Source: Candidatus Zixiibacteriota bacterium (GTDB lineage Bacteria > Zixibacteria > MSB-5A5 > GN15 > FEB-12). From it: a stretch of 64,000 nucleotides of DNA. The notes beneath the pieces are model-generated. The model was not told where the DNA came from and made no database searches. It saw nothing but the letters and a program-made list of their open reading frames with translations. The position numbers and the translations under genes are program-made. The stretch covers positions 83,888 through 147,887 of the forward strand of contig JACZXB010000005.1 of the NCBI GenBank assembly GCA_022571845.1, in the 5' to 3' direction. Shown here in pieces: positions 12,301 to 51,504 of this stretch (position 1 is the first letter of the stretch; each line of letters begins with the position of its first letter).

Positions 12301-13376
12301 GGCAATACGGAATAGTGCTAACGATTTTAGCGAGTTCACCAAGGAAAACCCAGCACGCTAATATTTCGCTTTTTGGCCCCTTTAGGAATTTTGAGAACTT
12401 CAAGAAGGGTGTTAAGAAAAAGCCTGTGACACTTAGCGGAAAAGATGTTCTTGACTGGACTGATTCAGCCCTACTTCCTTTACTTTCATCAAAGGAATCG
12501 GTCGAGGTTTTCCAGCAATTGAGGAAGGCACCACGTCTCGATTCTCAACTTGATGATTGGAGATGCAGGCCAGTTCAAGGAGATTTGAATGCAACAACGG
12601 GTAAGAAATATATGACATTTAGTGAAGTACGACTAAAACATTATTGGCCAGTTTATAAAGGCGAATCATTCGGAATCTGGAATCCCGATACAAGCATTTA
12701 CTACGCGTCGGTGGAGCCTAAAAAAATTGTTAAACACTTGCAGGAAAAGCGTAAAAGAGCTCATGGAAATTCCCGCTCCGCCTTTAGCGAGTTTTCGGAA
12801 AAGATGATAGAGGATGTAAGTACACTGACCTGTCTTTATCAACGAATTGCTTTTCGGGATGTTACGAACTCCATTGACAGTCGAACTGTTATTGCTTCCT
12901 TGGTTCCGCCAAATTTAGTCTTGACACACAAAGCACCTTACTTCTTATGGCCAAGAGGTGATGAATTGGATCAAGCTTTTCTTTTGGGAGTGTTGTGCTC
13001 ATTCCCACTCGACTGGTACGCAAGGCGTTTTGTGCAAACCACTCTAAATTTTCAAATTCTGTCTCCTTTTCCCGTTCCACATCCTGATAGGGCAAATACA
13101 CTTTGGAAACGGGTTGTAGCACTCGCTGGTCGCCTTGCTTGTCCTGACAAAAGATTTGCGGAATTCGCTAAGAAGGTTGGAGTTAAGTGCGGACCACTTA
13201 AAGCTGATGAAAAAGAAGATATGATACACGAATTGGACGCAGTGGTAGCACACTTATACGGACTAAATGAAAAACAAATAGTTCACATTTTTGAAACATT
13301 CCGCGTCGGCTACACTTACGAAGTTCGCATAAAAGAAACACTAAAATATTTCAAAGAGTGGAAAAAGAAGTTGTGA
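9399..13376 (+). CDS. Large Eco57I/PglX/DrmMI-like N6-adenine DNA methyltransferase with ~560-aa N-terminal extension and C-terminal specificity region
   Basis: Motif I is DIAMGSGHFLIAA (MGSGHFL = 11106-11126). The family-typical helical insert is CIYGVDLNPLAVELARLSVWIH...CGNSLVG. Motif IV is IIGNPPWEK (NPPW = 11877-11888). The start is uncertain: TTG 9399 is listed, but the frame is open back to 9279. Confidence 0.85.
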   Translation: MEVLVYYTAKRPRADALKKVWNERQGGRGVPLLVVALQESLCHFCGHTEKLANTAHTDLPIENIELLCRAALQLPNHHSVDRFLREHIRESDSPIFGIINHGLLATYVIQRGKEEVGESDWSTASRNVTEFFSKKKLFDSTDHRKLLNNLGYTIESLKGPAYILTSDDSHLALAILLDQNESAELPSGRFGNQTPISSALQMAQTHNLDWVIVCRGSELRLYPTRTGVGVGQRGLTDTYLSLDINLLPESRLPFLWLTMSAEALRQDGFISELRAKSHRFATNIGKRLRERIYITVIPKLAMAIVKARGLKKPSTEDLELTYQMAMLVLFRLLFIAYAEDHDLLPYRSNPAYKARSLTQKARELIEVMQKKREFDTGTSHWEEVNGLWDAVRAGHKEWEVPPYDGGLFEEDKEKHPAGYELSEIKLSNRDFGVVLTNVLLDQDTPEGLGPVDFRSLGVREFGTIYEGLLENELSVAEQNLTTDKKGHYKPTDDKKKIEVRKNEIYLHNRSGARKSSGSYYTKSFAVEHLLDHSLEPALDEHLKKVEALAKTDSTNAGKQLFEFYVADIAMGSGHFLIAAIDRIEKRFITFLGQTPLKSVDDELEKLRVAAKKTLGEAADERQLEKNQLLRRLIARRCIYGVDLNPLAVELARLSVWIHTFVPGLPLSFLDHNLVCGNSLVGIGTFDEAIDELTEAGANYGLFDDPAKKLLEAASDDIRTLRELPDADMKDIDRAKAAIRHMEKALSGLKAIFDILSAARIDDEIVEKMGAGAAGLLTNLKQLDTLFGSALHKKAREVLSAIRPFHFPIAFPEIFLRQTPGFDVIIGNPPWEKTQVEENEFWCRNYPGFKGLQQSDREKLMLIYKKERRDLVERLEAERKEADSIRLTLMTGPFPGMGSGHPDLYKAFCWRFWHLIRKEYGYIGVVLPRSAWAGQGLEIFRKKIIKDCRTVFLTTLINMNHWVFPEVHGQYGIVLTILASSPRKTQHANISLFGPFRNFENFKKGVKKKPVTLSGKDVLDWTDSALLPLLSSKESVEVFQQLRKAPRLDSQLDDWRCRPVQGDLNATTGKKYMTFSEVRLKHYWPVYKGESFGIWNPDTSIYYASVEPKKIVKHLQEKRKRAHGNSRSAFSEFSEKMIEDVSTLTCLYQRIAFRDVTNSIDSRTVIASLVPPNLVLTHKAPYFLWPRGDELDQAFLLGVLCSFPLDWYARRFVQTTLNFQILSPFPVPHPDRANTLWKRVVALAGRLACPDKRFAEFAKKVGVKCGPLKADEKEDMIHELDAVVAHLYGLNEKQIVHIFETFRVGYTYEVRIKETLKYFKEWKKKL

Positions 13377-13945
13377 TTGTTCGAAGTGACAGAGTAACTC
13401 CCGATAAACTTAAGTGGTACGACCGGTTTGGGCCTTATGCGTGGATATGTTATGAGGGGAAAGTCTTGAGAATGGATTATGATATACAGACCATCAATGA
13501 CGCGCATCGGCTACTAATTAGAAAAGAACATCACAATTTGATTAAGCTTCAGAAAGAGCCATTTACTTATGTAATGACCGGCTGTAAAGAGGACTGGATT
13601 AAGTATGGTCTTCAACCTGTCTATTTCTTGGTGGAAGATGTTAAAAAAGACAATAGGTGGTATCAACCAATTCGACAAATCGACCAGGCTTCTCAAAAAG
13701 AGCCATATTGGATTACTGAAGATATTGAGGAAGGAATAGAGCAATGTAGGCAAATAGTGGGATGTCCGAATTGCTGCCCCGATGAGAGACCATGGCCCCA
13801 AGCGGCTATTGCAGTACCGGTAAAAGGAATTGCAGAGCATTTTCTGGAAGCAGGGTGGGATAAGCTAATAGTTGATGAAGTTATATTGGACAAAGAAGTT
13901 GATTGGTTTAAGCAGGGCAGATTGCCCTTGGATAAAGAGAAATGA
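13358..13945 (+). CDS. Hypothetical 195-aa protein with Cys cluster (CRQIVGCPNCCP), coupled to the methyltransferase
   Basis: Its GTG start overlaps the MTase stop by 19 nt. No recognisable family. Confidence 0.45.
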   Translation: MEKEVVIVRSDRVTPDKLKWYDRFGPYAWICYEGKVLRMDYDIQTINDAHRLLIRKEHHNLIKLQKEPFTYVMTGCKEDWIKYGLQPVYFLVEDVKKDNRWYQPIRQIDQASQKEPYWITEDIEEGIEQCRQIVGCPNCCPDERPWPQAAIAVPVKGIAEHFLEAGWDKLIVDEVILDKEVDWFKQGRLPLDKEK

Positions 13946-14046
13946 GATATTGGTATCCAACTTGATATTGCATTTTGATATATCAAGATTAGATGGGGAC
14001 AACTTGATATTCCAAATTGGAACATCAAAATGTGAATTGAACAAAA

Positions 14047-17000
14047 ATGAGCAAACCGGAATTTGTTGACAACCGCGACGGCAACACGCTTGCCGAAGCT
14101 CTTCGTACCCATTTAGATTGGTTAGGTGAGACTTATGCCCAGCCGGTCGAGCTGTCTATCGCAACGGGATATTTCAATCCAGGCGGTTTTGCACAAATAG
14201 CAAATCATTTAGAGCGGATTTCTAAAGTGCGCTTATTGATTGGCGCCGAGCCGCTATCACCGCCTGCTATTCCCCGCCGAGACCCGATGAAAGACCCCCG
14301 GGGAGAAAAATTCGATCGCAAAATACTGGCTGACAAACTTCTCGAAGAAGAAAATGGAATTCGCAAAGACCGTGATTTGCTAGAGTTTGAACCAGAAGTA
14401 GATGCAACAGTTCGCCGATTATTGGAGTTTTTGAAATCTGGAAAAGTTGAAGTGCGTCGTTATGAGAGAGGTTTTCTTCATGGAAAAGCGTTTATCTTTT
14501 CTGATGATGAAGGGGTGTTGGCCGGTTCATCAAACTTTACGGCGGCTGGTCTTTTGTCAAATCTTGAACTAAATCTGGGCCACTATCAACCGGGTTTAGT
14601 CAAACGGGTAAAAGACTGGTTCGGTGATCTGTGGGTAGAATCAGTCCCGTATGACTTGGTCAGCATTTATGAGGCGCGCTATAAAGAATATGACCCGTAT
14701 CTAATTTATCTTCGAGTGCTATGGGAGCTTTATAAAGATGAAATGGAAGAAGAACGTCAGCCCAGCGGACGAATACCGCTAACTACTTTTCAAAATGACG
14801 GAATTAGCAGAGCTCAAAGAATTCTTGATAAATATGATGGCGTGATTATTGCCGACGGTGTTGGACTTGGTAAGACGTTTATTGCTGGTGAAATGATGCG
14901 AATAGTGCAGGACAACAGACAGAGGGTGTTACTGATTTCACCGGCAGCACTAAGGGACGGAACATGGAATAGATTTCAAATGAGAACACAACTGCGGTTC
15001 GAAAATCTATCATATGAGCAACTAGTTTTGGGTTCGGAGAGTTTTAAGCCAGATGAATACGAAATGGTAGTTATTGATGAAGCACAGGCATTTCGGAATC
15101 CGAATACTCAACGGGCACAGGCGCTCCGTAAATTATTGCAAGGCAAGCCTCCTAAGAAGTTAGTTCTAATGACAGCCACTCCAGTAAATAACTCGTTATG
15201 GGACTTGTATTATTTGATGACGTATTTCCTCAAACATGACGCGGTGTATGCGGACAAAGGAATCCGTTCGCTAAAACAAAGATTTACAGAAGCACAGAAG
15301 ATTGACCCATTTGATTTACGGCCGGATGTCCTTTTTGATGTTCTAGATCCGATAACAGTTCGGCGAACGCGTCAGTTTGTCCAAAAGTGGTATCCACACG
15401 AAACAATCACTTTACCAGACGGCACTCAGATTCCTGTACGTTTTCCTACCCCCCATGTTGGAAAAGTAGAATATAATCTTGAGAAAGTCTTACCCGAGAA
15501 CTTCTTTGAAGACTTTGCCGAAGCACTTGCACCGGAAAAAGGCGCTCCGGCTTTAACATTAGCACGATATCAACCATCCGCATATTTGAAAAAGGAAGAA
15601 ACGTTCGAGAGCGAAGTGGCATTAGTTGGACTGTTACGATCTGCACTACTCAAAAGATTCGAGTCTTCGGTTTATGCATTTGGTCGAACATCTGCAAAAA
15701 TGGCCAGAGCTAACGAAATGTTCTTAGCTGCTTTGGAAGAGGGATTTGTACCATCACCGCAAGCAATGGAAGAATTGCTTGAAACAGATTCTGATGAAGC
15801 GATAGAAGAACTGTTAATTGAATCAGGTTCAGAACCTGTTAAACTATATGAAGTTGATAGGTTGAAGGCTGATGTTACAAAAGATCGTGATTTATTACAG
15901 TCATACTTCAAAATTGCTGAGTCAGTCGTTCCTGAAAAGTCTCCCAAACTCAAACAGTTGGCTGAAACAATTGTAAAGATAATAAAACAGGCTGAAAGTG
16001 AAGCCGGAGGTAGTGAATATCCACGGGACAAAATTAAGGTCTTGATCTTTTCCTATTACGGGGATACAGTGAGATGGATTTACAATTACCTCTCAAAAAT
16101 GACCGAAACTGACCTACGCTTGGCACCATATCGAGGAAGAGTTGCAGCTATTGTAGGTGATAAAGCTCTGCAGGGAGGCTCTCGCGAATCAACAGTTTTT
16201 GGTTTTGCACCGGATACTACTGAGGCACCGCAACGATTTGCAGAAGATAAATTTGACATTCTTATTACAACTGATGTTTTGGCCGAAGGTATGAACCTGC
16301 AACAATGTCGTCACATTATAAACTTTGATTTGCCTTGGAACCCAATGCGACTGGTGCAACGTCACGGACGAATTGATCGCATTGGTAGCAAACACAAAAA
16401 TGTCTTTATAAAATGCTTCTTCCCCGACGTTAGATTGGATGACTTGCTTGCTTTAGAAATTCGCATTCGCAGCAAATTGGCCCGAGCAGCTGCCTCAATA
16501 GGAGTTGAATCGGAAGTAATCCCTGGTGGCACGATTGAAGAAGTAATCTTTACTGAAACGAAAGAACAAATTGAGGCATTGAAGAGTGGCGATGCTAATT
16601 TGTTCGAGCGTGGAGAAGAAATAGAGGGCGCTCATTCTGGCGAAGAATATCGTCAAGAATTACGAAAAGGGCTGGAAGATTTCGGTGATAATATTGTGAA
16701 TTTGCCCTGGGGAGTGGGGTCAGGCTTCAAGTACGGAATTCAACCTGGATGGTTCTTTTGTGCTTGTGTAGGCGATAAAATATTTTTGCGCTTCGTTCCG
16801 GAAGATAAACAAAATCCGATAGTGACTGACACTTTGGGATGTCTAAGGCACGTTGCTTGTGAGCGTACTACTCCTCGACACTTACCCGGAGTTAGTATCA
16901 AGAGTGCATACGAGGCCTGGAACAAAGCCCGTACTCATATCTTTCAAGAGTGGACAATGGCAACTGACCCCAAAAATTTACAACCTAAAATCCGGCCACT

Positions 17001-17286
17001 CTTTAGAAAAATGGCAGAACATATTCGTCAAAATCCGCCGGAAAACATAAATCAAAATCAAATAGAAGACACCGTTGATGCAATTTTGGCTCCCTGGGGA
17101 ATTCGTTATGAAAGAGAATTGCGACCTATAATGCAGGACGAGGCCAGTTCGGATGAAGAAAGGTCAAAGCAGATAATCGATAAGGTGGCCGAACTGGGGA
17201 TGTCCCCTTACGTTAAGCCGGAGCCCTTACCACTTATTGATGCAGATGAAGTGAAGTTGATTTGTTGGATGGGGATATTAAGCTGA
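14047..17286 (+). CDS. Phospholipase-D-family nuclease domain fused to an SNF2-family helicase
   Basis: HKD motif HGKAFIFSDDEGVLAGSSNFT (14479-14541). SNF2 motifs are ADGVGLGKT, VIDEAQAFRN (DEAQ = 15076-15087) and LMTATPVNNS. The C-terminal helicase motifs are TDVLAEGMNLQQC and LVQRHGRIDRIGS. Confidence 0.85.
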   Translation: MSKPEFVDNRDGNTLAEALRTHLDWLGETYAQPVELSIATGYFNPGGFAQIANHLERISKVRLLIGAEPLSPPAIPRRDPMKDPRGEKFDRKILADKLLEEENGIRKDRDLLEFEPEVDATVRRLLEFLKSGKVEVRRYERGFLHGKAFIFSDDEGVLAGSSNFTAAGLLSNLELNLGHYQPGLVKRVKDWFGDLWVESVPYDLVSIYEARYKEYDPYLIYLRVLWELYKDEMEEERQPSGRIPLTTFQNDGISRAQRILDKYDGVIIADGVGLGKTFIAGEMMRIVQDNRQRVLLISPAALRDGTWNRFQMRTQLRFENLSYEQLVLGSESFKPDEYEMVVIDEAQAFRNPNTQRAQALRKLLQGKPPKKLVLMTATPVNNSLWDLYYLMTYFLKHDAVYADKGIRSLKQRFTEAQKIDPFDLRPDVLFDVLDPITVRRTRQFVQKWYPHETITLPDGTQIPVRFPTPHVGKVEYNLEKVLPENFFEDFAEALAPEKGAPALTLARYQPSAYLKKEETFESEVALVGLLRSALLKRFESSVYAFGRTSAKMARANEMFLAALEEGFVPSPQAMEELLETDSDEAIEELLIESGSEPVKLYEVDRLKADVTKDRDLLQSYFKIAESVVPEKSPKLKQLAETIVKIIKQAESEAGGSEYPRDKIKVLIFSYYGDTVRWIYNYLSKMTETDLRLAPYRGRVAAIVGDKALQGGSRESTVFGFAPDTTEAPQRFAEDKFDILITTDVLAEGMNLQQCRHIINFDLPWNPMRLVQRHGRIDRIGSKHKNVFIKCFFPDVRLDDLLALEIRIRSKLARAAASIGVESEVIPGGTIEEVIFTETKEQIEALKSGDANLFERGEEIEGAHSGEEYRQELRKGLEDFGDNIVNLPWGVGSGFKYGIQPGWFFCACVGDKIFLRFVPEDKQNPIVTDTLGCLRHVACERTTPRHLPGVSIKSAYEAWNKARTHIFQEWTMATDPKNLQPKIRPLFRKMAEHIRQNPPENINQNQIEDTVDAILAPWGIRYERELRPIMQDEASSDEERSKQIIDKVAELGMSPYVKPEPLPLIDADEVKLICWMGILS

Positions 17287-17482
17287 AGTCGTTAGCGAGT
17301 GCTGCACCGAGTTGCCTTAGGGGCAATCAGGATACAGTGAATAAGGCTCTTAATCGCAAGAGTGTTGAAAGATTTGCAGCTAACTCTTCGAATTGGATGG
17401 AAAATAACCCAAATTCAATATTGACCTAATGTCTGGCGCATATTAACTTTAGGGCAATAATCCTATCAAAAAGAGGTAGAAA

Positions 17483-18208
17483 ATTAGGCAGCGTCTTTTA
17501 GTAAGTGTTAGAGCGAAAAACGATGCTCTGGAAGCAATCAAAGGAGGAGCCCAGATTATTGATGCCGAATATCCCGGGTCGGCCCTTGGCACTTGCTGGC
17601 CTGCGAATATTAGGGCTATTCGTAACCATACTCCAGCCGAGCTTCAGGTGAGTACGAATATTGGCGAAAAACAATTTGTCTGGAGTACTGCCGGTCAGGC
17701 GGCTGTTGGTGTAGCGTTTGCTGGAGCAAATATTATCAAGGTCGGTCTGGCTGAACTTAATAAGACGAAAGCTTTAAGAGTCATGAAAAATGTTACGCAC
17801 CAAGTCAATTACTTTTTCAAGGATAAACCGCCTGCTATGATTGCAACTTTCTTTGCTGATGAAGATCTGCGTAAATTCTTTGACCCAGTAGTAAACGGAG
17901 CAGAGGTTTCATCAAAGTCAAAAGCTAACGGGGTGCTCATAGATACATTCGATAAGAATTGTGGAAAAAGCCTTTTGGACTGGCTAAGTTTGAAAGAGAT
18001 CAAATCTTTTGTCAAAAACTGCCATACGCAAAATCAAGAAGCTTGGCTTGCGGGATCAATAACAAAAGCACAGATGCCAGGGTTGTGGAAAACAGGGGTA
18101 GATGTTATTTGTGTTAGAGGGGCCGCTTGTGAAAGTGGAATGGGTCGACAAGCGAAAGTAATCGCACGAAAAGTTAAAGCACTTATGAACATATTATCAG
18201 GAAATTAG
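17483..18208 (+). CDS. MfnB / DUF556-like (4-HFC-P synthase family) TIM-barrel protein, divergent, probable non-canonical ATT start
   Basis: The frame opens at 17480. The upstream part reads RLLVSVRAKNDALEAIKGGAQIIDAEYPGSALG, followed by VSTNIG, IIKVGL, VMKNVT, LIDTFDK, LAGSI and VRGAAC, which match my memory of the family. The first canonical start (GTG 17648) would delete the conserved N-terminus. AAGAGG (17471-17476) lies 6 nt before ATT 17483. Confidence 0.6.
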   Translation: MRQRLLVSVRAKNDALEAIKGGAQIIDAEYPGSALGTCWPANIRAIRNHTPAELQVSTNIGEKQFVWSTAGQAAVGVAFAGANIIKVGLAELNKTKALRVMKNVTHQVNYFFKDKPPAMIATFFADEDLRKFFDPVVNGAEVSSKSKANGVLIDTFDKNCGKSLLDWLSLKEIKSFVKNCHTQNQEAWLAGSITKAQMPGLWKTGVDVICVRGAACESGMGRQAKVIARKVKALMNILSGN

Positions 18209-18219
18209 GATAATTAGTG

Positions 18220-19542
18220 ATGCCCCTATACTTATCTAGAGTAAAAATTTCCAATATCAGGTGCTTCGAAAAACTCAATATTAATTTTCGCAAAAAAGAT
18301 GACCTTATACTCTGGACGACTTTGCTCGGAGACAATGCGACTGGCAAAACAACCTTATTGAAATGCATTGCGTTGGGTTTATGTGACGAATCCAGTGCAG
18401 CCGGATTGTTAAAGGAGTCTGAAGAAGGATACATTAGGAAAGATGAGGAATGGGCGACAATTTCAATTGAATTATGCTACAGCAAAGGTAGCAACAAGAC
18501 ATATCGGATAAATACGAGGATTGAGAAAATTCGAATGAAAGGGAAGGAAAAACAAACTTTCGAGAAACTTAGACAACGTACAATCCCTTTTAAAAATTTT
18601 CCATGGCATGACATTTTTGTATGCGCATATGGAATAGGTCGTGGAATATCGGGCACTGGAGATATTTCAGGTTATTACCCCATTAGCGCTGTCTATAATC
18701 TTTTCAACTATTTTGAGGGACTTCAGAACCCCGAATTAATTCTTCGACGCATAGATAAGAAAACAACCGTAAAGAGAATTCTTAAGGAAGTTAGTGAAAA
18801 AGCAATGCGAGCAGCTGGTATTGATCCAATCTCGATGGCTGGGGCAAAGGAAGGACTTAAAGTTAGCGGACAATGGGAAAGTGAGTTTCCGCTTAGAGAT
18901 GTTGCAGATGGAGTTAGGTCTTTTTTACAGTGGATTATTGATTTTATCGGTTGGGCACTTAGCTATGATAAGAAAATAGATAGACTCAAAATGATTCATG
19001 GAATTGTAATTGTAGATGCGTTAGAAGAGCACCTACACCCGGTTTGGCAACGATATGTTGTCAGTGATCTTAAGAAGGCATTTCCAAACGTCCAGTTCGT
19101 GATTTCTTCTCATTCACCACTAGTAGCTGCTGGTTCTTCTGATTTTGAGGATGCATTATTGGTAAATTTAGTACTCGAGCTTGGAAATAAAGTAGTAAGA
19201 AAATACATTAACCTTAAAAGCCTACATAATCTGCGACCTGATCAAATACTAAGGATCGCTTTCGGCCTGCCTGTGATCATTAGTCCCAAATCCCCCGATA
19301 GAATTTCACGTTTCATTGAACTTGCAACTAAAAAGAAGCCTAGCCCGTCTGAAAAGAAACAACTGGCAACGTTGAAGCAGAGTATTAAAAGTACATTTGA
19401 ATTTGAACACACAAATTACGAACAACAAGTGTACAACGCTCTAAACATTGTGCTTAAGAAGATCCTGAAAGAGGAACCATCGGAAATTCACAAATTGATA
19501 GAGCAAAAAACTCTTTATAAGTTATTTAGGGGGGGCGATTAA
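18220..19542 (+). CDS. AAA/ABC-type ATPase, Septu PtuA-like
   Basis: N-terminus LSRVKISNIRCFEKL; Walker A GDNATGKT (18328-18351); Walker B IVIVDALEEHLHP. An HNH gene follows immediately. Confidence 0.65.
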   Translation: MPLYLSRVKISNIRCFEKLNINFRKKDDLILWTTLLGDNATGKTTLLKCIALGLCDESSAAGLLKESEEGYIRKDEEWATISIELCYSKGSNKTYRINTRIEKIRMKGKEKQTFEKLRQRTIPFKNFPWHDIFVCAYGIGRGISGTGDISGYYPISAVYNLFNYFEGLQNPELILRRIDKKTTVKRILKEVSEKAMRAAGIDPISMAGAKEGLKVSGQWESEFPLRDVADGVRSFLQWIIDFIGWALSYDKKIDRLKMIHGIVIVDALEEHLHPVWQRYVVSDLKKAFPNVQFVISSHSPLVAAGSSDFEDALLVNLVLELGNKVVRKYINLKSLHNLRPDQILRIAFGLPVIISPKSPDRISRFIELATKKKPSPSEKKQLATLKQSIKSTFEFEHTNYEQQVYNALNIVLKKILKEEPSEIHKLIEQKTLYKLFRGGD

Positions 19543-33252: not shown

Positions 33253-33687
33253 ATGATGGTACGATTGGAGCATGCAAACATTTGCGTCAAAAACATTGAC
33301 TTGATGATTGGTTTTTTAGAAACGGCCTTTCCCGAATTCCGAGTTCGTGGAAAAGGTTTAAGTCAAGATGGAACAATTAAGTGGCTACATATTGGTACTG
33401 ATGACACTTATATTGCCTTACAACAGGCCGAAAAAAATGCTGTCTCAGATTGGACTCCGAATTCCGGTAAGCCAGGAGTGAATCACCTTGCTTACGAAGT
33501 GGATGAAATTGACTCTCTGCGAAATCGTCTAATCTCAAAAGGATTCAAAGAGTTAACAGTTGTCGACTCACATCCACACAGAAAACGTGTTTATTTCAAC
33601 GACCCCGAGGGCAATGACTGGGAATTTATTCAGTACTTCTCAGAGATTCCCGCAGAGAGAAACGACTATGATATACCTGATTCATAA
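33253..33687 (+). CDS. VOC (glyoxalase/bleomycin-resistance/dioxygenase) family protein
   Basis: The pattern HANICVKN...HLAYEVD...FNDPEGNDWEF is typical of VOC metal-binding folds. Confidence 0.6.
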   Translation: MMVRLEHANICVKNIDLMIGFLETAFPEFRVRGKGLSQDGTIKWLHIGTDDTYIALQQAEKNAVSDWTPNSGKPGVNHLAYEVDEIDSLRNRLISKGFKELTVVDSHPHRKRVYFNDPEGNDWEFIQYFSEIPAERNDYDIPDS

Positions 33688-33814: not shown

Positions 33815-34165
33815 CTACGTTTCGTTTACAATATTGTAACCAGATGCAATCCAAGCCTCAATGCCACCGTCCAGAACCATGACCTTTTGGAATCCTTTTT
33901 CAATGTACTGTGCCGCCAGACCGACGGCACTGGCATCGCCATGTCAGCCTCAGTAAAAGACGATCTCAGCGTCCATCTGAAGTTGAGGGATTTTCGACTC
34001 CAATTCATTTAGGGAAATGGCACCCTCCAGATGAGAGGCGTCAAACTTTTCTTGGGAATATGCACAGACCAACAGAGTCGAATTACCTTTGCCCAGCTTT
34101 TCATACACTAGCTGAACGTTTATGCGAGCGGGTTGAGACATTTCTTCCTCCTCTATCTTGTTCAT
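33815..34165 (-). CDS. Single-domain rhodanese with two in-frame TGA codons at the active-site loop (candidate selenoprotein, alternatively a pseudogene)
   Basis: The minus strand reads ...LLVCAYSQEKFDASHLEGAISLNEL...DAEIVFY-TGA-G-TGA-HGDASAVGLAAQYIEKGFQKVMVLDGGIEAWIASGYNIVNET-TAG. The TGA codons are at 33950-33952 and 33944-33946. The same frame stays open and rhodanese-like for 43 further codons. Confidence 0.55.
33910..33930 (-). promoter_or_regulatory. SECIS-like hairpin downstream of the in-frame TGA codons
   Basis: The RNA GUGCCGUC-GGUCU-GGCGGCAC forms an 8-bp stem (one G.U pair) with a GGUCU apical loop. The stem starts 13 nt after the second UGA and 19 nt after the first. From memory, the loop resembles the GGUC apical loop of the E. 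coli fdhF SECIS. Confidence 0.45.
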
Positions 34166-34474: not shown

Positions 34475-35863
34475 TTATGATTTAATTGACTTTAGGCCTA
34501 CCTCAATCTCTTTCATGGTAATTCTTCGTTCATGCTTATCAGGCTGCAGCATTCGAATAATCATTGGACGAAATTCATTAGGTAATTCTTGCGCAACTTT
34601 TTGTGGTTCAATTTTTTGGATCTGATTTAGAATGTTTAATACATTTTTGCCGGAAATGACATTCTTCCCAATTAACATTTCCGTAATGAGCAATCCGAAT
34701 GAAAATACGTCACTTTCAAAAGTGGGAAATTCCCCTCTTGTCTGTTCTGGCGACATGTAGCCGGGAGTCCCCATAAGTGTCCCCGTTTTTATCCCATTTT
34801 GTGTTAATGTTGCACTATCCTCCTCGTTCAACTGCCTACGTTGAGAAAGTCCAAAATCTACGATTTTGACTTTATCGTTATCAGTTAAGATTATGTTGGA
34901 AGGTTTCAAATCACCGTGTACAATTTTCTTATTGTGAGCCGCATGAAGGCCGCTTGCAACTTTAGATCCGATCTTTGCTGCTTTGAATGGAGATAAGGGA
35001 CCTTCTCTTAGCTGCTCTTTCAGTGTTTTGCCGGGCAAATATTCCATTACAATTATTGGGAATCCCTCACTGTCTTCAATGTGAAAAACTGTACATATAT
35101 TGGGGTGGCTAAGAGCTGCCGATAACTTTGCTTCATTTGTGATAGATGTCTGTTGTTTGTTAGAGAGACGTAGAATCTTGAGCGCTACATTTCGTTCAAG
35201 TAAACGATCGTATGCTTTATAAACGGTAGCAAACCCTCCTCTACCCACTACCTCTTCAATGCTATAATTAGCAATAACCATACCAGGCTTTAGTTCCACT
35301 GCGCAGTTGATCGCTGAATCACCCGGCGACCAGTTTTCAGCACAAAGCCCGCCTGTTTGCAATGCATTTAAAATGCGAAGTATTTCCTCAATACGTCGTC
35401 CTACGTTCAAATTATGAATTGATTGATACTGTATTACGGAATTAGGGTCGATAATAAATACGCCACGGAGAGCAAGTTTCTGAGTATCTCCGAAAACGTG
35501 GTATAATTTGGAAACTCTAAAGTCCACATCACTGCCTAACGGGAATTTGAGTGCACTTATCCCGCCGTGTTCGATCGGTGTCTTTACCCAGCGATCATGA
35601 CTCTCCATTGTATCTGTACTAATCGCAAGTATATCTGCATTTGCTTTTGAAAACTCCTCGTATTTGTTATTGAAGGCAGTAAGTTCAGTTGGACAAATCA
35701 GTGAAAAATCTTGCGGGTAGAACACAAGCACCAACCAGCGACCACGATAGTCGCTTAGCTTGAATTTACATCTCGTTTCGCCAGCATTGCAGGTACAGAA
35801 TATTTCAAAGTCTGGAGCAATTCGACCTACTAAAGTTGATGATAGTTGTGATGTCTCGGCCAT
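34475..35863 (-). CDS. Typical 2-Cys peroxiredoxin (AhpC/TSA) fused to a Hanks-type Ser/Thr protein kinase
   Basis: N-terminal FYPQDFSLICPTEL (peroxidatic Cys) and GGLCAENWSPGD (resolving Cys). The kinase domain has VALKIL, HGDLKPSNIIL, DFGLS and GTPGYMSPE. Confidence 0.8.
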   Translation of the reverse strand: MAETSQLSSTLVGRIAPDFEIFCTCNAGETRCKFKLSDYRGRWLVLVFYPQDFSLICPTELTAFNNKYEEFSKANADILAISTDTMESHDRWVKTPIEHGGISALKFPLGSDVDFRVSKLYHVFGDTQKLALRGVFIIDPNSVIQYQSIHNLNVGRRIEEILRILNALQTGGLCAENWSPGDSAINCAVELKPGMVIANYSIEEVVGRGGFATVYKAYDRLLERNVALKILRLSNKQQTSITNEAKLSAALSHPNICTVFHIEDSEGFPIIVMEYLPGKTLKEQLREGPLSPFKAAKIGSKVASGLHAAHNKKIVHGDLKPSNIILTDNDKVKIVDFGLSQRRQLNEEDSATLTQNGIKTGTLMGTPGYMSPEQTRGEFPTFESDVFSFGLLITEMLIGKNVISGKNVLNILNQIQKIEPQKVAQELPNEFRPMIIRMLQPDKHERRITMKEIEVGLKSIKS

Positions 35864-44839: not shown

Positions 44840-45850
44840 TTATTTGACGAGCATCATCTTTTTGGATTCAGAATGAGTCTCAGTCAGCATCCGGTAGAAA
44901 TATATACCACTCGCTAATAATGAGCCATCAAATTGGTAGATATACTCACCCGCTCCCTTGTTACCCAAGTCAATAGACTCAATCTCACGCCCCAAAATGT
45001 CATATATCTGAAGCTGCACATCAGTTCTGAATGGAAGCGAATAAGCGATATTGGTAGTAGGGTTAAACGGATTAGGGTAGTTCTGCTCCAGGACAAACCT
45101 TGAAGGCAAAATACCGTCTATTTCATCATCAATTCCGACTGTAATTGAAGGTTGCAAGTTAAATGAACTGTCGATATGCTGTGATGTATCAAGATAAGAG
45201 AAGACCGAATAAGATATGAAATCGTCAGGGGGATCACCCGGCCAAAGGGGCACAAAAATATCAAAGTATACATAAGCAGTATCACTCGGCTCAGCATAGA
45301 CAAAATTAGCCTGTGGCTCAATTATCCAGCCTTTGGTCGAAACTGCATTTATGCCGTAAAAATCCAATCCGTCACCGTCATTTCTAATCCCAACCCGGAC
45401 TCTGACCCAGAAGTTATAGCCGACAAGGGTATCATTGGGGTAGGAAACCCCTGTAACAGCTATCAGAGTCGAATTAGCTGAAAGGGAGACTTTTTTTACA
45501 GCTTTTTCAATCCAGGTGGCATCTCCGGAGTCAACCGTGGCCGCCCGGCCATTAATAGTAAAGCTGATAAGTTCACCAGGGTCGGCCCCTTCATCTAAAC
45601 CCGGAGTCTCAGGGTCATCGCCGTATGTCGACAAAAACCCATATTTGCCGGCAGCAAGGACTGTATCTTTGCCGATGGAAACTCCGTTTGAGTCAAACGC
45701 TTCAATTATGGAGCCAACCGAAACAGGTTGACCATCAAAGGTGGTAGAAGAGTCAAAAAATGTGCAAAACTCCGGCTGTGACTGGGCAGGCGAAGCGGCA
45801 ATTATCGTGATTACCGCTGCCAAAACCGCTATTTTGAGTCTATTTGTCAT
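44840..45850 (-). CDS. Secreted protein with T9SS-type C-terminal sorting domain
   Basis: Signal peptide, and C-terminal LEQNYPNPFNPTTNIAYSLP...GIYFYRM...KKMMLVK typical of Por/T9SS type A CTDs. Confidence 0.7.
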   Translation of the reverse strand: MTNRLKIAVLAAVITIIAASPAQSQPEFCTFFDSSTTFDGQPVSVGSIIEAFDSNGVSIGKDTVLAAGKYGFLSTYGDDPETPGLDEGADPGELISFTINGRAATVDSGDATWIEKAVKKVSLSANSTLIAVTGVSYPNDTLVGYNFWVRVRVGIRNDGDGLDFYGINAVSTKGWIIEPQANFVYAEPSDTAYVYFDIFVPLWPGDPPDDFISYSVFSYLDTSQHIDSSFNLQPSITVGIDDEIDGILPSRFVLEQNYPNPFNPTTNIAYSLPFRTDVQLQIYDILGREIESIDLGNKGAGEYIYQFDGSLLASGIYFYRMLTETHSESKKMMLVK

Positions 45851-45900: not shown

Positions 45901-48900
45901 TTATTTCAGTAAAGTCATTTTCTTAGTTTCAATCTGCCTATTATCAGCAGTCAATCTGTATAGATAAATTCCAGAGGCCGCTGTTTCGCCGCTCAATGTC
46001 CGGCCGTCCCAAATCACCTTAGTTTCGCCGGCATCGGCCATGCCGTCAAAAGGAATTGCCACTACCTGACCTAAGAGATTGAATATTTCAATCCTGGCCT
46101 GGCCTGCAGCCGGCAGGCTGAAGTTTATGGTAGTAGATGGGTTAAACGGATTGGGGTAGTTCTGAGACAGAGAGTAACTGCCCGGAAGATTATCATCAGG
46201 GCTGCCGCCTGTGGTCAGGGCTGCTACTTCAATCAAAGCGCCCTGATCAGTCCAGCTGAATTCTTCGCGGGTTCTCTCGCCATCTATTTCAAGGAAGAAA
46301 ACATCACCTTTACTGATTCCGGTCACCTGCTCACCAAAGAGGTCGGCGTAGACCGGCATAAATCCAAACTGGCCGTGCTCGGAAAGCTCAAAATGACCGA
46401 TTTTTATGCCATCGGCTGAACGAGCGATAACAATTGCTCCGGCCGATACGGTCAGATTATCTAAAGTAAGATTGTAAGAGTAGAGGTTGACCCAGCTTCT
46501 GGTCGGCTCAACAACTTTCTCTACAGTCTTGGCTGAGGCCAAGAGGTTTTCAATATCGTATTCAGGTGCCGCCAGGCCTCCTGCTGCCGGATAAGTTAGC
46601 ACGTCGCTAGTGCTGACTTTGAGCCAGTAGCCGAGACATGTCATCATTTCGGTCAGAGTATTAAAGACAGGATCTACTCCTGGTTTATAGATAAACGGAG
46701 CTTCATCGTAAGTATAGGCTATCTCAAGGCTGCCAAGTGAAGCCAAAGCTGAGTCTGTAGGCAGCGTATCGTTTGGCAGATAGCTGACCAGATTCCAGCC
46801 TGAGTTAAGCAGGATTGGGGTATCCTGATCCACCGGTACACCACTTATTTCTAATGTAAAGGGAATATAACAAACCTGTGCGGGACCAGAAGTATCTATC
46901 TTAATCCAATAACCGCTTAGGTGATCAACGGTATGAAGTGTGTTAAAAATATCCATACCCGGTACATAAGTCAATCCACCCTGTTCAAAGCCAAGTACAA
47001 CCCCTATACAGCCAAGCGAAGCAAGAACATCTTCAATATCATCCGAATCAGTATTCAAATTCCAGCTGACCAAATTCCAGCCAGGATTCAAAGTACATTC
47101 AAGCGTCAGCCGTTCGCCTCCGGCCAGACAGACACGGACAGTGTCATATTCAGCTGGATAGATGGTATTGCCATCGGCTAAGGCTGCGACGCCATTTATA
47201 AAGAATCTGATATTATCACCGGTAGTGGCACCTTCGTCTTCGCTAGAGCCGGTAGAATCTCTATAGACCGGCATAAATCTGTAGACGCCGGGGTCTGTTA
47301 CAAACTGACGACCGCAAATGTTGCCCTGCGGGTCCTGAGCTTCTACAATGGCACCAACCGGCAGAGGTGAGCCGAAAAGTGTGTTGACATCGCAGAAATA
47401 ATCAACCCACTGGTCAACCGGCGTAATCGCCTCGACCGGGTAGAGAATTATCATGACTCCGATTTTACCAGAGTTGACGGTAGTATCGTTGGGATAGCAG
47501 GCGCCGTTAAAAGTAGTGGAATCCGAACTGCCTTTATAGGCATAAAGGTCAAAACTGCCCAGGAAAAAATCAGTAAAAGCAAAAGCTCCGTTGCCGTTGG
47601 TGGTGGTAGTCATGGTAGGACCGCTGCTCGGATAATCCGGCCAGAGTTCAACCGTTGCACCGGCTATACCAACCGTATCGGGGCTTATAATATATCCACA
47701 GACAAAAGATTCGGTTATATCGACTATGATATTTCCACCGCCACCGGGGATGACCGGGAGGATATTCTGTTGCCCTTCACCACCACCGCAATCTCTCAGG
47801 AAAAAAGTTGAGGGATGAGCAGTATCAGCTTTGGCAAATGATATCACAGGAGTTACGCCATAAACTCCGAGTGGCGTAAAGCAGTCGATAGAAAAGAAAA
47901 GATTTCCAAGTGCATAATTTGCCGGGGCTATCGGCGGGCCATCGCTTACCTGGGCGCTTATGAAAACGTTGTTATTGATATTATCGATGTCTACATTTTT
48001 GATAGCTAGGCCACTTAATGCTTCGTCAAATATGAACGAATCAAGGACTATTGAACTACCACCATCCCAGTCTATGGGAATGATTATACCATAGACATCG
48101 CAACTGTTTGTAATTGTAAGCGGAACAGCTATCTGTTGTCCCGGGACTGCCGGAACCGTAGCAACTACCAGAGTGTCACCTTCGCTGCCCGGATCTTTGT
48201 CTTCAACTGTTATGGTAAATGATTCACTGACTGTATCTTTTCCGTCGGAAGCGTGGGCAGTAAGGGGATAGACTCCGGCCTGGTTGAAGTTTGGCGTAAA
48301 TCTGAACTGACCGTTGCCATTGCCGCTATCTATAAAAGTCATATTGTCTTCCAACGTTGCGACTGACAGATAAAGAGTATCGCCGTCGGCATCTGAGGCA
48401 CTAACGCCAATTATTAAAGTTTCACCTTCAAAAATTGTTGTATCTGCGATCGCATCCAGTACCGGCGGAGTGTTTGGCTTTTCAAGAATTTCCAGAGAGA
48501 CAATTATAATCACCGGAGAGTTAAAAGCCGTATCAGCAGAGACAACGATGGTGTCAGCGTAGGTGCCGGGAGGTAATGAATCGAGATTTGTAGTATCAGC
48601 AACTACCAAGAAATTATCTGGTGCTGTGCCGGATGATTTGCTGGTGTTAAACCAGAAGCTGCTTTCTGATACTGTATAAGGCCAAATTCCCCCGGCGCTG
48701 TCTGATACTGAGACAGAAACCGGATCAAAAGCCGCACCGCCATCGGTCACTGTAAGATTGATGCTGGTCGGGCTGACTTCCAAAAGGATCGGCGCTGCCG
48801 TGATTTCCAGAATTACTACAGCGAAAATTGGGGAATTGTTGGCGTCGCCGGATGAAATTGTTATGTCACTGTAGTAGACACCCACTGGCAAAGCTGTCAA

Positions 48901-51504
48901 ATCTGAATCAGGAAAGATACGCAGGTAATCCGGGGTAATGCCATCTTGTTGTGAAGTATGTAACCATATAGAGGTATCAGACGCAGAATATGAAATATTA
49001 AAGGCGCCCGTCTCAGTAACTAGAAAAGAGTCAGGAGCTGGATTAGCTCCGGCATGCACCGCTGACCAAAAAATAGTATCCGGAGCTACGGCCAAAAACT
49101 TATCGGCACGAATGACTTCCAAACTTACATACTCATAAATTGGTGAATTATTGGCGGCAGCGGAAGATACCATGACTGAGTCAAAATATGTGCCGGGTGC
49201 CAGGCCTGATATGTCTATAGAAACATCTACGGCTTCAGGAGTTGTTCCACCTGTTTTGTTAAGAGAGAGCCAGCTAATGTTTTCTGTCAAGGCAAAAGAA
49301 ATGTTAAAGGCTCCGGTCTCACTAACTGTGAAAGACTGGTCGGAAGGGTTGGCACCGCCTTCGACAGCACTGAAAGAAAGAGTGTCAGGGTCTAAGGCAA
49401 GAGATTTGTCGGCTGAGAAAACTTCCAAGCTGACGTACTCATAAATAGGAGAATTACTGGCAGCACCTGATGATACTTGCACAGAGTCAAAATATGTTCC
49501 GGGAGAAAGACCGGATATGTCTACCGAAGCAGTTACATCTTCGGTAGTTGTGCCACCGGATTTGTCTAGCGATAACCAAAGTGAGCTTTCTGAAACGGAA
49601 AAGGCGATGTTAAATCCGCCTGTCTCGCTGACCGTGAATACCTGGTCGTCAGGGTTCAAGCCGGCTTCAACAGCACTAAATGAAAGTGTGTCAGGATTGA
49701 CTGCCAGAAATTTAGGAGCTGAGCTGACCACCAAACTTACATATTCATAAATGGGTGAGTTATTGGCAGCACCAGAAGATATCATGACAGAGTCAAGATA
49801 AGCACCGGGGGCGAGACCAGATATGTTTACCGAAACGGTTACATCTTCGGTAGTTGTGCCACCGGATTTGTCTAGCGACAGCCAAAGTGAGCTTTCTGAC
49901 ACAGTAAAAGCAATGTTAAATGCTCCGGTTTCACTGACTGTGAATGACTGGTCAGCAGGATTTACTCCGGCTTCAACCGCACTAAATGAAAGTGTGCCAG
50001 GACTTACAGCCAAAAACTTGTCGGCTGTAGCGACTACCAAACTTACATATTCAAAAATGGGAGAGTTATTGGCTTCGCCCGAAGACACCATCACCGAATC
50101 AAAATAAGCACCGGGAGCGAGACCAGATATGTTTACCGAAACGGTTACATCTTCGGTAGTTGTGCCACCGGATTTGTTAAGCGAAAGCCAAAGTGAGCTT
50201 TCTGAAACAGAAAAAGCTATGTTAAATTCACCTGTCTCACTAACAGTAAATGATTGGTCAGCAGGATTTGCTCCGGCTTCAACCGCACTAAATGAAAGTG
50301 TGTCAGGGCTTACTGCCAGAAACTTGTTAACCATCAATACAACCAATTTAGCGTATACATAAATAGGGGAATTGGCAGCATCACCAGAAGATACCTGCAC
50401 AGAGTCAAAGTAAGTGCCGGGGGCGAGACCGGTTATATCTGCCGATGCAATTACGGACTCATCAGTAGTACCACCTGTTTTGTTTAGAGATAACCAGGTA
50501 GAACTCTCCGAAAGACTAAAGTTAATGTTAAAGGCGCCAGTTTCACTAACTAAGAATGAAACGGGTGGAGGATTAGCTCCTGATTCTAACGCGGTAAACA
50601 ATAATGTGTCGGGGCTAACGGCCAGGAATTTTTCGACCGCATTCACTTGCAGCGAAACAAAAATGTACTGTGGTGAATTGTCAGCTTCGCCGGAGACAAC
50701 TGCGATAGAATCAAAGTAATTTCCGGGGGCAAGACCTGAGATGTTATAGGTTACCACCAGTTCATCCGGGGTGGTACCTGAAAGAGGGGAAACAGACGCC
50801 CATGAAATTGTTTCGGTGACGCTGAATCCAATGTTAGCGCCGCCAGCTTCGGTAACATCTACCGTATCAGGACTCGGATTTGCGCCGCCTTCAACGGCTG
50901 TACCAGAAACAGAGTCGGGCGAAACAATAAGGTCAATTGTTGGGACAGGGGCATTCGGGTCGGTTATTTTCAAAGCGCCGGTCCAGTTTGGTATATATGT
51001 TATTTGGACACCATTTATGAATTGAAAAGCACTGGCGTCGTTAAATTCCAGAGAATCTATGTTTATTTCATCGGAAGTAGTCCAGTTTGATAGCGTAAAG
51101 TAATAAGTAGCCCAGTGCCTTCTTGTGGCGTCACCCGGAAAGAGGGAGAAAATAGCTATACCACCAAATAAAGCTCTTTGATTAGCATTAGTTACTGCAA
51201 TATCATTGTCTTCGAATAAAAACGGTCCAATCCCAAATCCGTTATCGGCCAGTGGGGTAGCAACAGCGCTGTCCATCTGAAGGTTTGAATTATCCCAGCT
51301 GAAGCCCATAGTAGCAGCAAACAGCTCAGCATCATTATATACCCAAAGTTGAACTGCAACATTGAGCTGGTTAGCATTGGCATCGGGATTAAGCGAAACC
51401 ACCAGACTTATAGTGTCCGGTGTGCCTGCATCCTGGGCAAATGCCGGAACAGCAAAAAGCGCCAAAAAGAGTAACGTCAGAAATGTTTTTTTCAATTGCA
51501 TCAA
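45901..51504 (-). CDS. Giant (1867 aa) secreted multidomain surface protein: BACON-like tandem repeats, cadherin-like and cohesin-like modules, T9SS C-terminal sorting domain
   Basis: Signal peptide; eight ~102-aa repeats (KFLAVSPDTLSFSAVEAGANP...SWLSL.K.GGTT...ISGLAPGTYFDSV.VSSG.ANNSPIYEYVSL); PPVLDAIADTTIFEGETL...SASDADGD; C-terminal SQNYPNPFNPSTTINFSLP...GIYLYRL. Confidence 0.8.
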   Translation of the reverse strand: MMQLKKTFLTLLFLALFAVPAFAQDAGTPDTISLVVSLNPDANANQLNVAVQLWVYNDAELFAATMGFSWDNSNLQMDSAVATPLADNGFGIGPFLFEDNDIAVTNANQRALFGGIAIFSLFPGDATRRHWATYYFTLSNWTTSDEINIDSLEFNDASAFQFINGVQITYIPNWTGALKITDPNAPVPTIDLIVSPDSVSGTAVEGGANPSPDTVDVTEAGGANIGFSVTETISWASVSPLSGTTPDELVVTYNISGLAPGNYFDSIAVVSGEADNSPQYIFVSLQVNAVEKFLAVSPDTLLFTALESGANPPPVSFLVSETGAFNINFSLSESSTWLSLNKTGGTTDESVIASADITGLAPGTYFDSVQVSSGDAANSPIYVYAKLVVLMVNKFLAVSPDTLSFSAVEAGANPADQSFTVSETGEFNIAFSVSESSLWLSLNKSGGTTTEDVTVSVNISGLAPGAYFDSVMVSSGEANNSPIFEYVSLVVATADKFLAVSPGTLSFSAVEAGVNPADQSFTVSETGAFNIAFTVSESSLWLSLDKSGGTTTEDVTVSVNISGLAPGAYLDSVMISSGAANNSPIYEYVSLVVSSAPKFLAVNPDTLSFSAVEAGLNPDDQVFTVSETGGFNIAFSVSESSLWLSLDKSGGTTTEDVTASVDISGLSPGTYFDSVQVSSGAASNSPIYEYVSLEVFSADKSLALDPDTLSFSAVEGGANPSDQSFTVSETGAFNISFALTENISWLSLNKTGGTTPEAVDVSIDISGLAPGTYFDSVMVSSAAANNSPIYEYVSLEVIRADKFLAVAPDTIFWSAVHAGANPAPDSFLVTETGAFNISYSASDTSIWLHTSQQDGITPDYLRIFPDSDLTALPVGVYYSDITISSGDANNSPIFAVVILEITAAPILLEVSPTSINLTVTDGGAAFDPVSVSVSDSAGGIWPYTVSESSFWFNTSKSSGTAPDNFLVVADTTNLDSLPPGTYADTIVVSADTAFNSPVIIIVSLEILEKPNTPPVLDAIADTTIFEGETLIIGVSASDADGDTLYLSVATLEDNMTFIDSGNGNGQFRFTPNFNQAGVYPLTAHASDGKDTVSESFTITVEDKDPGSEGDTLVVATVPAVPGQQIAVPLTITNSCDVYGIIIPIDWDGGSSIVLDSFIFDEALSGLAIKNVDIDNINNNVFISAQVSDGPPIAPANYALGNLFFSIDCFTPLGVYGVTPVISFAKADTAHPSTFFLRDCGGGEGQQNILPVIPGGGGNIIVDITESFVCGYIISPDTVGIAGATVELWPDYPSSGPTMTTTTNGNGAFAFTDFFLGSFDLYAYKGSSDSTTFNGACYPNDTTVNSGKIGVMIILYPVEAITPVDQWVDYFCDVNTLFGSPLPVGAIVEAQDPQGNICGRQFVTDPGVYRFMPVYRDSTGSSEDEGATTGDNIRFFINGVAALADGNTIYPAEYDTVRVCLAGGERLTLECTLNPGWNLVSWNLNTDSDDIEDVLASLGCIGVVLGFEQGGLTYVPGMDIFNTLHTVDHLSGYWIKIDTSGPAQVCYIPFTLEISGVPVDQDTPILLNSGWNLVSYLPNDTLPTDSALASLGSLEIAYTYDEAPFIYKPGVDPVFNTLTEMMTCLGYWLKVSTSDVLTYPAAGGLAAPEYDIENLLASAKTVEKVVEPTRSWVNLYSYNLTLDNLTVSAGAIVIARSADGIKIGHFELSEHGQFGFMPVYADLFGEQVTGISKGDVFFLEIDGERTREEFSWTDQGALIEVAALTTGGSPDDNLPGSYSLSQNYPNPFNPSTTINFSLPAAGQARIEIFNLLGQVVAIPFDGMADAGETKVIWDGRTLSGETAASGIYLYRLTADNRQIETKKMTLLK
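48481..50940 (-). repeat. In-frame coding tandem repeats, 8 units of ~306 nt (102 aa)
   Basis: The K-F-L-A-V unit starts fall at aa 292, 394, 496, 598, 700 and 802, an exact 102-aa period. The central units are near-identical. Confidence 0.85.

Follow-up and report, generated by a model that had tools for sequence, protein, structure and literature searches.

A rhodanese gene with two in-frame TGA codons and one conserved SECIS-like hairpin: a predicted Sec-x-Sec clade of a known selenoprotein type

Bacterial selenoproteins are identified by a cysteine/selenocysteine (Cys/Sec) pair among homologues together with a bacterial selenocysteine insertion sequence element (bSECIS) (Zhang, Fomenko & Gladyshev; PMC1088965). 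The closest described precedent for the gene reported here is a rhodanese-related sulfurtransferase of the deltaproteobacterial symbionts of Olavius algarvensis, for which the source states that 'a second Sec evolved... resulting in a UxU motif' (Zhang & Gladyshev 2007, NAR, PMC1976440). Later reviews recognize five rhodanese selenoprotein forms (UxxS, UxxG, CxU, which is NF041203, UxxG, and UxxxxU, which is TsoB) and do not list UxU, and no other paper in the literature searched pairs 'UxU' with selenocysteine in bacteria. Here we analyse a 64-kb stretch of DNA (64,000 nucleotides, hereafter the window) from a Candidatus Zixiibacteriota bacterium, which carries on its minus strand a rhodanese gene with the in-frame sequence TGA-GGC-TGA followed by a SECIS-like hairpin.

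An earlier note on this DNA had called a U-x-U motif served by one SECIS unusual. This overstated the novelty, as a UxU rhodanese-related sulfurtransferase had appeared in PMC1976440, and other bacterial double selenoproteins have been catalogued (PMC13188914). On the comparisons below, the double-Sec rhodanese is a known type, to which the window contributes a predicted clade that is new and unannotated, with better comparative support than has been published. We consider it highly probable that both UGAs encode selenocysteine. Equally probably, the active-site loop would be Sec64-Gly-Sec66 (U-G-U), the selenium version of the C-x-C loop found in Cys-containing relatives.

The rhodanese reading frame and its relatives

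The rhodanese gene with two in-frame TGAs is intact and is read past both of them. Its minus-strand frame runs ...MDAEIVFY, TGA (33952-33950), GGC, TGA (33946-33944), HGDASAVGLAAQYIEKGFQKVMVLDGGIEAWIASGYNIVNET, TAG (33817-33815), and the codons around the loop are GAG ATC GTC TTT TAC TGA GGC TGA CAT GGC GAT. The sequence is thus as the earlier note had described it, an open reading frame (ORF) that halts at TGA after DAEIVFY and continues in the same frame through TGA-GGC-TGA, open as far as the TAG. The features of the gene are:

33815..34141, minus strand: predicted rhodanese selenoprotein coding sequence (CDS), 108 codons plus TAG, single domain, based on translation, Pfam and the conserved frame; predicted product MSQPARINVQ...EIVFY-U-G-U-HGDASAVGLAAQYIEKGF...NIVNET
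34147..34151, minus strand: Shine-Dalgarno-like GGAGG, 5 nt 5′ of the ATG at 34141
33950..33952, minus strand: first in-frame TGA (codon 64), a predicted Sec codon where the rhodanese loop canonically carries its catalytic Cys
33947..33949, minus strand: GGC, Gly65, between both TGAs, the variable x of the C/U-x-C/U motif
33944..33946, minus strand: second in-frame TGA (codon 66), also a predicted Sec codon, matching the second Cys of CxC and the Sec of the CxU (LYCAU) form
33815..33817, minus strand: true stop TAG, read from sequence and translation

The start at the in-frame ATG 34165, which had been assumed previously, gives way to ATG 34141, which is more likely because GGAGG lies at 34151-34147 and all homologues begin MSQP or MSEP. 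The read-through product matches the Pfam Rhodanese family PF00581 over residues 11-99 (profile 4-101 of 102, E = 7e-13, 49.3 bits against a cutoff of 22.2), which supports the proposal that the sequence continuing through TGA-GGC-TGA encodes the C-terminal half of a rhodanese domain. As the match covers the whole domain, it requires read-through of both TGAs. Public annotation of the gene consists only of a 63-aa stub (P0169) identical to the N-terminus of the window protein. A promoter and terminator scan gave nothing beyond shuffle expectation. A split, two-piece protein was considered and rejected: after the second TGA the first in-frame start is Met88, and a continuous strand-loop-helix is required for the rhodanese fold.

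Close relatives are few: only 11 were found among 5.8 billion proteins. Of these, four have 116 aa and read 'FYWGWHGD' (P0001-P0004), and the others are 63-71-aa fragments ending ...EIVFY, plus one ending ...FYCG. In the DNA of three related loci (L001, L002 and L015), the 'W' residues prove to be TGA codons read with genetic code 4. Our comparison set comprised 14 close loci from independent samples and assemblers, which gave 13 distinct sequences, plus the distant L015, for 15 related loci in total. The frame is open through both codons in all 15, with TGA-x-TGA in 14 and TGC-GGC-TGA in one (L003). Among the 13 distinct close sequences, codon 66 is always TGA, codon 64 is TGA in 12 and TGC once (L003, literally C-G-U), and the C-terminal end ...VV[NT]xT followed by the stop is kept in 10. 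The middle codon is GGC, GGT or GCC in the close clade and GCG (Ala) in L015. A degenerate DNA pattern, GARATHGTNTTYTAYTGNGGNTGNCAYGG, had one metagenome match (L004) and none in 185,579 species-representative genomes, and a peptide-pattern search built from the protein alignment matched 25 and 41 stretches in genome and metagenome collections, none of which was confirmed.

Two of the close loci have altered 3′ ends. In L003 the end (540-600) runs into a C10 homopolymer and reads ...EQGSRYDPPPPQV before the stop, and in L009 the rhodanese C-terminus is extended to ...AEKPRALPQSRHPK before the stop. These may be assembly artefacts or real C-terminal variation.

The 13 distinct close sequences contain no indels or additional stops, and their synonymous divergence (pS) reaches ~0.6. 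By Nei-Gojobori-type counts, the ratio of nonsynonymous to synonymous change (dN/dS) is 0.14-0.62 over the 41 codons after the TGAs and 0.05-0.46 over the 63 codons before them. The comparable values on both sides, together with the lack of indels and stops, indicate that the C-terminal half is translated and under purifying selection. These data bear directly on whether the gene is a pseudogene, or its TGAs sequencing or assembly errors, so that the real product would be the 63-aa fragment. Public gene calls do end at the first TGA (P0169, P0005-P0011), but 14 of the 15 related loci, which derive from independent samples and assemblers, carry both TGAs, the frame carries no frameshifts or further stops, and the downstream part, under constraint like that upstream, completes the rhodanese fold, whereas a 63-aa fragment would be without the active-site loop and half of the domain. 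Disabling mutations in relatives, named in the earlier note as a sign of a pseudogene, were not found, with the frame intact in all related loci. We give this explanation almost no weight and regard it as effectively refuted already.

A reassigned genetic code, in which TGA would be read as Trp or Gly to give a W-G-W or G-G-G loop, is similarly remote. It draws on the database proteins that appear as 'FYWGWHGD' or 'FYWAWP' (P0001-P0004, P0021). However, among the 38 window ORFs of at least 150 aa, 13 stop at TGA, 17 at TAA and 8 at TAG, so the code is standard and not reassigned, bearing out the earlier view that global recoding is unlikely where neighbouring genes end in TGA. Table-11 ORFs also tile the window densely, and the code-4 call of L015 overruns its natural TGA stop, adding ~75 non-homologous residues. 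Finally, homologues have Cys, not Trp, at both columns, and L003 has TGC. Stop-codon usage has effectively refuted a reassigned code, and we put its probability at close to nil.

Code-4 gene calls in public protein collections show Sec as Trp more widely, as 'FYWGWHGD', 'FYWAWP' or 'FYCAWP' (P0001-P0004, P0021, which is L015 640-1182, P0032, P0138, P0159, P0030, P0070, P0073 and P0076). This systematic artefact could be mined for selenoproteins.

To place the clade among rhodaneses, we took a family census by exhaustive HMMER search of 1.84 billion cluster representatives and aligned the best 150 matches to the query. The close clade is a single 50%-identity cluster. Nearest to it, at 40-50% identity, come single-domain rhodaneses with the pattern LLVCAY...EIIFY-C-x-C-P...GGVxAWKxAGY. 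The loop forms were:

C-x-C form: about 33 clusters (CGC, CAC, CSC, CTC, CRC, CHC, CDC)
C-x-(S/T/D/G) form: about 15 clusters
C-x-W form: 4 clusters (P0030, P0070, P0073, P0076)
W-x-W form: 4 further clusters (P0021, P0032, P0138, P0159)
Cut off at these loop codons: 2 clusters (P0100, P0151)

In the Cys forms x is A, G, S, T, R, H or D, and the column of the first TGA is an invariant Cys in about 50 Cys-form clusters among these best 150 matches. One distant W-x-W case could be followed at the DNA level, where L015 (P0021, ~45% identical) reads TGA-GCG-TGA. The first TGA aligns with the catalytic Cys of the solved rhodaneses 6mxv (fYCG) and 3gk5 (viC-aHGnrSA), and the second follows at +2, in a loop that exceeds the GlpE loop by one residue. 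The TGAs had been placed at the rhodanese catalytic Cys loop, with the question whether Cys homologues would align with one or both; the alignment confirms the placement and answers the question for both, the first TGA falling on the catalytic Cys and the second on the second Cys of the CxC relatives (about 33 clusters). In this alignment both TGA positions are classic predicted Sec/Cys pairs. Measured against the criteria of PMC1088965, the TGAs are conserved in the 13 close sequences and in L015, and Cys homologues exist at both positions. An arsenate-reductase/Cdc25-type CX5R loop was rejected, there being no Arg at +6 from either predicted Sec.

A conserved hairpin downstream of both TGAs

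Just 3′ of the loop codons the RNA folds into a hairpin, GUGCCGUC-GGUCU-GGCGGCAC, at 33930-33910, with 8 bp in the window and a start 13 nt after the second TGA. Its conserved part is:

33912..33928, minus strand: conserved bSECIS-like hairpin, 6-bp stem GCCGUC/GGCGGC, 5-nt loop GGUCU, based on the fold of the window sequence and on RNAalifold

The 8-bp stem, GGUCU loop and 13-nt distance given in the earlier note do describe the fold in the window, but conservation is confined to the inner 6 bp (33928-33923 with 33917-33912), and the outer pair 24-42 of the longer stem is paired in only 2 of 12 sequences. Taken alone in its 61-nt context, the hairpin is unremarkable against shuffles (z = -0.94), so its significance rests on position, rule fit and comparative data.

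The bSECIS consensus (PMC13188914, Fig. 2 legend, summarizing Zhang & Gladyshev 2005) calls for a loop of 3-9 nt on an upper stem of 4-16 bp, with G at one or both of loop positions 1 and 2 (N1-G-[G/U]-N-N2), 16-37 nt from the UGA to the apical loop, and a free energy of at most -7.5 kcal/mol. The same hairpin conforms to all of these rules for both UGAs in 13 of 13 distinct sequences, a favourable outcome for the SECIS check that had been proposed for this region. The stem is 6-8 bp in all 13, and the loop is 5 nt, or 3 nt in L002 and L006, where an additional A-U pair forms; the loops GGUCU, GGUCA and AGUUU all fit the consensus. In the window the loop starts 21 nt after the second UGA (UGA2) and 27 nt after the first (UGA1), and across the 13 sequences these distances are 21-22 and 27-28 nt; L015 has a UGA2-to-loop spacing of 21 nt. 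Energies range from -7.5 kcal/mol (L004, borderline) to -13.2 kcal/mol (window). As background, 39 of the 2,464 TGA triplets in the window (1.6%) pass the bSECIS rules, and 0.3% do so at the strength of this hairpin. Among window TGAs preceded by at least 40 open codons, the rhodanese site ranks first.

Comparative data point to constraint on the RNA itself. All 72 cells of the inner stem are paired in the 12 aligned sequences. The third pair is C-G in 10 sequences, U·G in L004 and U-A in L015, so that two synonymous third positions have changed in a compensatory series, and the fifth pair has changed from U·G to C-G three times. When the segment was recoded synonymously with the window's codon usage, a rule-conforming hairpin arose in 7-13% of cases, and at the same place in 6-9%. 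The stem also uses GCG, the rarest Ala codon here (14%), which never changes at codon 76, while the Ala codon that comes next, just beyond the stem, varies among A, C and T. RNA-level selection on the hairpin is therefore visible, and the covariation is real but thin.

RNAalifold also offered a second hairpin around UGA2, just upstream of the SECIS-like one (33929-33949, minus strand; GCUG-A-CAU-GGCG-AUG-C-CAGY; alignment columns 5-24). Its pair-preserving changes are one-sided only, with two broken cells. We did not adopt it because it is weak, is partly broken in three sequences and would lie inside the ribosome during UGA1 decoding.

Proposed decoding and active-site chemistry

From these data we infer the identity of the inserted residue, the use of one hairpin for both codons, the diselenide chemistry and the enzymatic function. 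In the proposed mechanism, both UGAs would be decoded as Sec by SelB·GTP·Sec-tRNASec, with SelB recruited to the single in-CDS hairpin, and Sec would be delivered twice from the same hairpin, at UGA1 and, once the ribosome had advanced by two codons, at UGA2. The loop distances of 21 nt (UGA2) and 27 nt (UGA1) both fall inside the 16-37 nt range of bacterial SECIS elements. The base of the conserved stem lies 15 nt after UGA2 and 21 nt after UGA1, so in both states the hairpin should keep its fold and remain clear of the mRNA channel of the ribosome. Were it still free when the ribosome reached UGA2, a second SelB complex could bind, allowing two successive deliveries.

In the product, Sec64 would take the place of the canonical persulfide-carrying Cys nucleophile and Sec66 that of a second, probably resolving, Cys, at the position that is Sec in the CxU form. 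Together the pair could constitute a vicinal diselenol/diselenide or a mixed Se-S centre (a selenenyl-sulfide with substrate) for sulfur/selenium transfer or thiol-type redox. The likely evolutionary path, judging from the distribution of loop forms, is CxC to CxU to UxU with occasional reversion, given that CxC is common, CxU and UxU each occur in several clusters, and L003 is a CxU form inside the UxU clade.

Combining these elements, we favour, with only modest confidence, a scheme in which a single 17-nt SECIS hairpin programmes two Sec insertions two codons apart (27, then 21 nt from the loop) and so gives a vicinal, diselenide-capable Sec-x-Sec on the rhodanese catalytic loop, an arrangement that would have arisen or been kept in at least two, probably five, divergent clusters of the CxC family. 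If this is true, SelB tolerates a 6-nt shift in UGA-SECIS geometry and reloads on the same hairpin within two translocation steps. The conserved ASAVGxAA-coding segment might then be a latent, pre-adapted SECIS that eases the change from Cys to Sec at either position.

Several observations weigh against reading both UGAs as Sec codons served by this hairpin. Of the six pairs in the conserved stem, four are dictated by codon positions one and two (peptide A-V-G-x-A-A) and the remaining two are wobble-wobble pairs. Covariation is limited to one fully compensatory pair, and 20 of 500 shuffles reach the observed level. A tblastn search of plasmids with a Cys-form relative gave no match, and hence no Cys-form DNA as a control for the hairpin, and Rfam, at gathering thresholds and at E <= 10, returned nothing relevant to the hairpin, only one spurious match to a long noncoding RNA. 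In E. coli the distance from UGA to SECIS is reportedly tightly constrained; with spacing that strict, one hairpin serving two UGAs 6 nt apart is not self-evident, and efficiency may be low. The 64-kb window yielded no tRNA-Sec, as ARAGORN found only tRNA-Leu and tRNA-Arg and Rfam nothing beyond these, and NCBIfam and Pfam identified no SelA, SelB or SelD among its 38 long ORFs. A scan of the window for TGA-interrupted genes or SECIS-like sites produced no convincing second selenoprotein gene. The one SelB-sized GTPase in the window (610 aa, 59794-61626) is LepA.

The strictness of spacing raises the question of whether only UGA2, at the CxU position, is efficiently decoded as Sec, with UGA1 being recent or leaky, poorly decoded or subject to near-cognate read-through, such that most translation ends at codon 64 or the site acts as a selenium-dependent attenuator. 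The CxU form appears ancestral, NF041203 being 'LYCAU' and L003 and several clusters being CxU-like. The spacing between the hairpin and UGA2 is a constant 21-22 nt even with the distant L015 included, and SECIS spacing in E. coli is reportedly strict. Yet the first TGA is present in 12 of 13 close sequences and occurs independently in the ~45%-identical L015 clade and probably in three more WxW clusters, and its 27-nt spacing is within the 16-37 nt consensus. It also falls on the invariant catalytic Cys, where termination or any residue other than Cys or Sec would inactivate the enzyme. Efficient decoding of UGA2 alone is, in our view, unlikely.

The window's lack of recognizable Sec machinery, together with Cys at the homologous positions, could also be accommodated if the UGAs were recoded, SECIS-dependently or not, to Cys or another residue instead of Sec. 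Mukai et al. reportedly found a tRNASec-like, Cys-accepting tRNA in some bacteria. Against this, such systems are rare, the hairpin fits the bSECIS consensus of ordinary SelB-type elements, the closest relatives in curated families and in the literature are regarded as selenoproteins, and no data specifically favour Cys. We therefore consider recoding to another residue very improbable, and retain Sec as the predicted residue at both codons.

Genomic surroundings and comparison with known systems

The gene directly upstream of the rhodanese (34475-35863, minus) encodes a 2-Cys peroxiredoxin to which a Ser/Thr protein kinase is fused on the C-terminal side; the best NCBIfam peroxiredoxin match of the former part is the PrxU model, below cutoff. 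A kinase gene also precedes the rhodanese in L001, so this neighbourhood is conserved in close relatives. Convergent to the rhodanese lies a VOC/glyoxalase-family gene (33253-33687, plus), with the same layout in L010 and L011. The kinase-rhodanese-glyoxalase synteny holds within the clade, with the exception of L005 and L007. The peroxiredoxin-kinase fusion and the rhodanese may form a redox-sensing module.

Elsewhere in the window, 5365-19542 (plus) looks like an integrated defence island, with a tRNA-Leu (5365-5450), a tyrosine integrase (5559-6665), an Eco57I-like restriction-modification methylase of 1,325 aa (9399-13376), a 1,079-aa PLD-nuclease and SNF2 helicase protein (14047-17286) and a PtuA-like ATPase (18217-19542). 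Within it, a 186-aa ORF (17648-18208, plus) has a below-cutoff match, from profile position 55 on, to (5-formylfuran-3-yl)methyl phosphate synthase (MfnB, methanofuran biosynthesis). This ORF is either N-terminally truncated or mis-started, and its function is unexpected beside defence-like genes. Two adjacent genes (44840-45850 and 45901-51504, both minus) encode proteins with type IX secretion system (T9SS) C-terminal sorting domains, one of them a very large protein (1,867 aa) that contains BACON, Ig-like and cadherin-like repeats. These sorting domains suggest a host from the FCB group (Bacteroidota-like).

Because public data hold the gene as a 63-aa stub or a code-4 Trp artefact, and because its product scores below the NF041203 cutoff, the UxU/CxU rhodanese selenoprotein clade is invisible to standard pipelines. 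The locus offers a compact natural test case for how tightly SelB/SECIS geometry determines which codon is decoded, and for whether two UGAs 6 nt apart can share one hairpin. If present on a rhodanese scaffold, a Sec-x-Sec loop would give a vicinal diselenol/diselenide centre of a kind rare in nature, of interest for sulfur/selenium trafficking and for designing redox catalysts of low potential.

The minimal SECIS of E. coli fdhF is a stem-loop that has a bulged U, contains GU in its loop and lies at a distance of ~11 nt from the UGA. The window hairpin is likewise a coding-region hairpin just 3′ of a UGA with a small apical loop containing G and then G/U, a likeness that it shares with bSECIS elements in general. 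It differs from fdhF in having no sequence homology to it, in the distance of its stem base (13-15 nt from UGA2, 19-21 nt from UGA1) and in the absence of a predicted bulged U, and with its loop G-G-U it resembles the general bSECIS consensus and not fdhF specifically. Unlike in fdhF, one element is presumed to serve two UGAs.

Two Secs in one redox motif are also found in SelL (UxxU) of aquatic eukaryotes, reportedly described as diselenide-forming by Shchedrina et al. in 2007. SelL, a eukaryotic protein of the thioredoxin fold, relies on a SECIS in the 3′ untranslated region; it is not homologous, and the comparison is functional only. Among bacterial proteins, TsoB (NF045694, UxxxxU; rhodanese/DsbD fusion-like), the FmdB-family UxxU proteins, MbdU and ArsM/DUF2284 likewise have two Secs close together, and one of these has a rhodanese domain. 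TsoB, however, is a 572-aa fusion with UxxxxU spacing, and its model gives a marginal 20 bits for P0073 and no match for the window protein.

GlpE/PspE-type rhodaneses (E. coli GlpE, PDB 1gmx; NF001195) share the fold, a size of about 108 aa, an end-to-end alignment and a catalytic Cys at the first TGA, but the match is weak (41.5 bits against the NF001195 cutoff of 102). The GlpE loop is C-Y-H-G-N-S-S, with a single Cys and no Sec, whereas the window loop is one residue longer and has a second Cys/Sec position at +2. The best NCBIfam match of the window protein and of its CxC, CxU and UxU relatives is NF041203 (rhodanese_LYCAU). The two share a single rhodanese domain and Sec two residues after the catalytic position, which is Cys in NF041203, and L003 is C-G-U. 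The window clade also has a predicted Sec at the catalytic position, and its loop is FY-U-G-U-HGD as opposed to LY-C-A-U. The window protein scores 50.9 bits against a cutoff of 115, with only residues 34-104 aligned; at a score so far below the cutoff it is a relative, not a member, of NF041203.

The Olavius UxU form (PMC1976440) is likened to the window protein at the level of motif and superfamily, not subfamily: the two share the UxU motif type, the rhodanese superfamily and the criteria applied (conserved TGA, Cys homologues, bSECIS). The published account of that form consists of one sentence and one figure and gives no analysis of one SECIS for two UGAs. The window clade comes from a different bacterium, probably of the FCB group, than the deltaproteobacterial symbionts of Olavius. 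Current understanding is not overturned by these comparisons; they extend a family noted in 2007.

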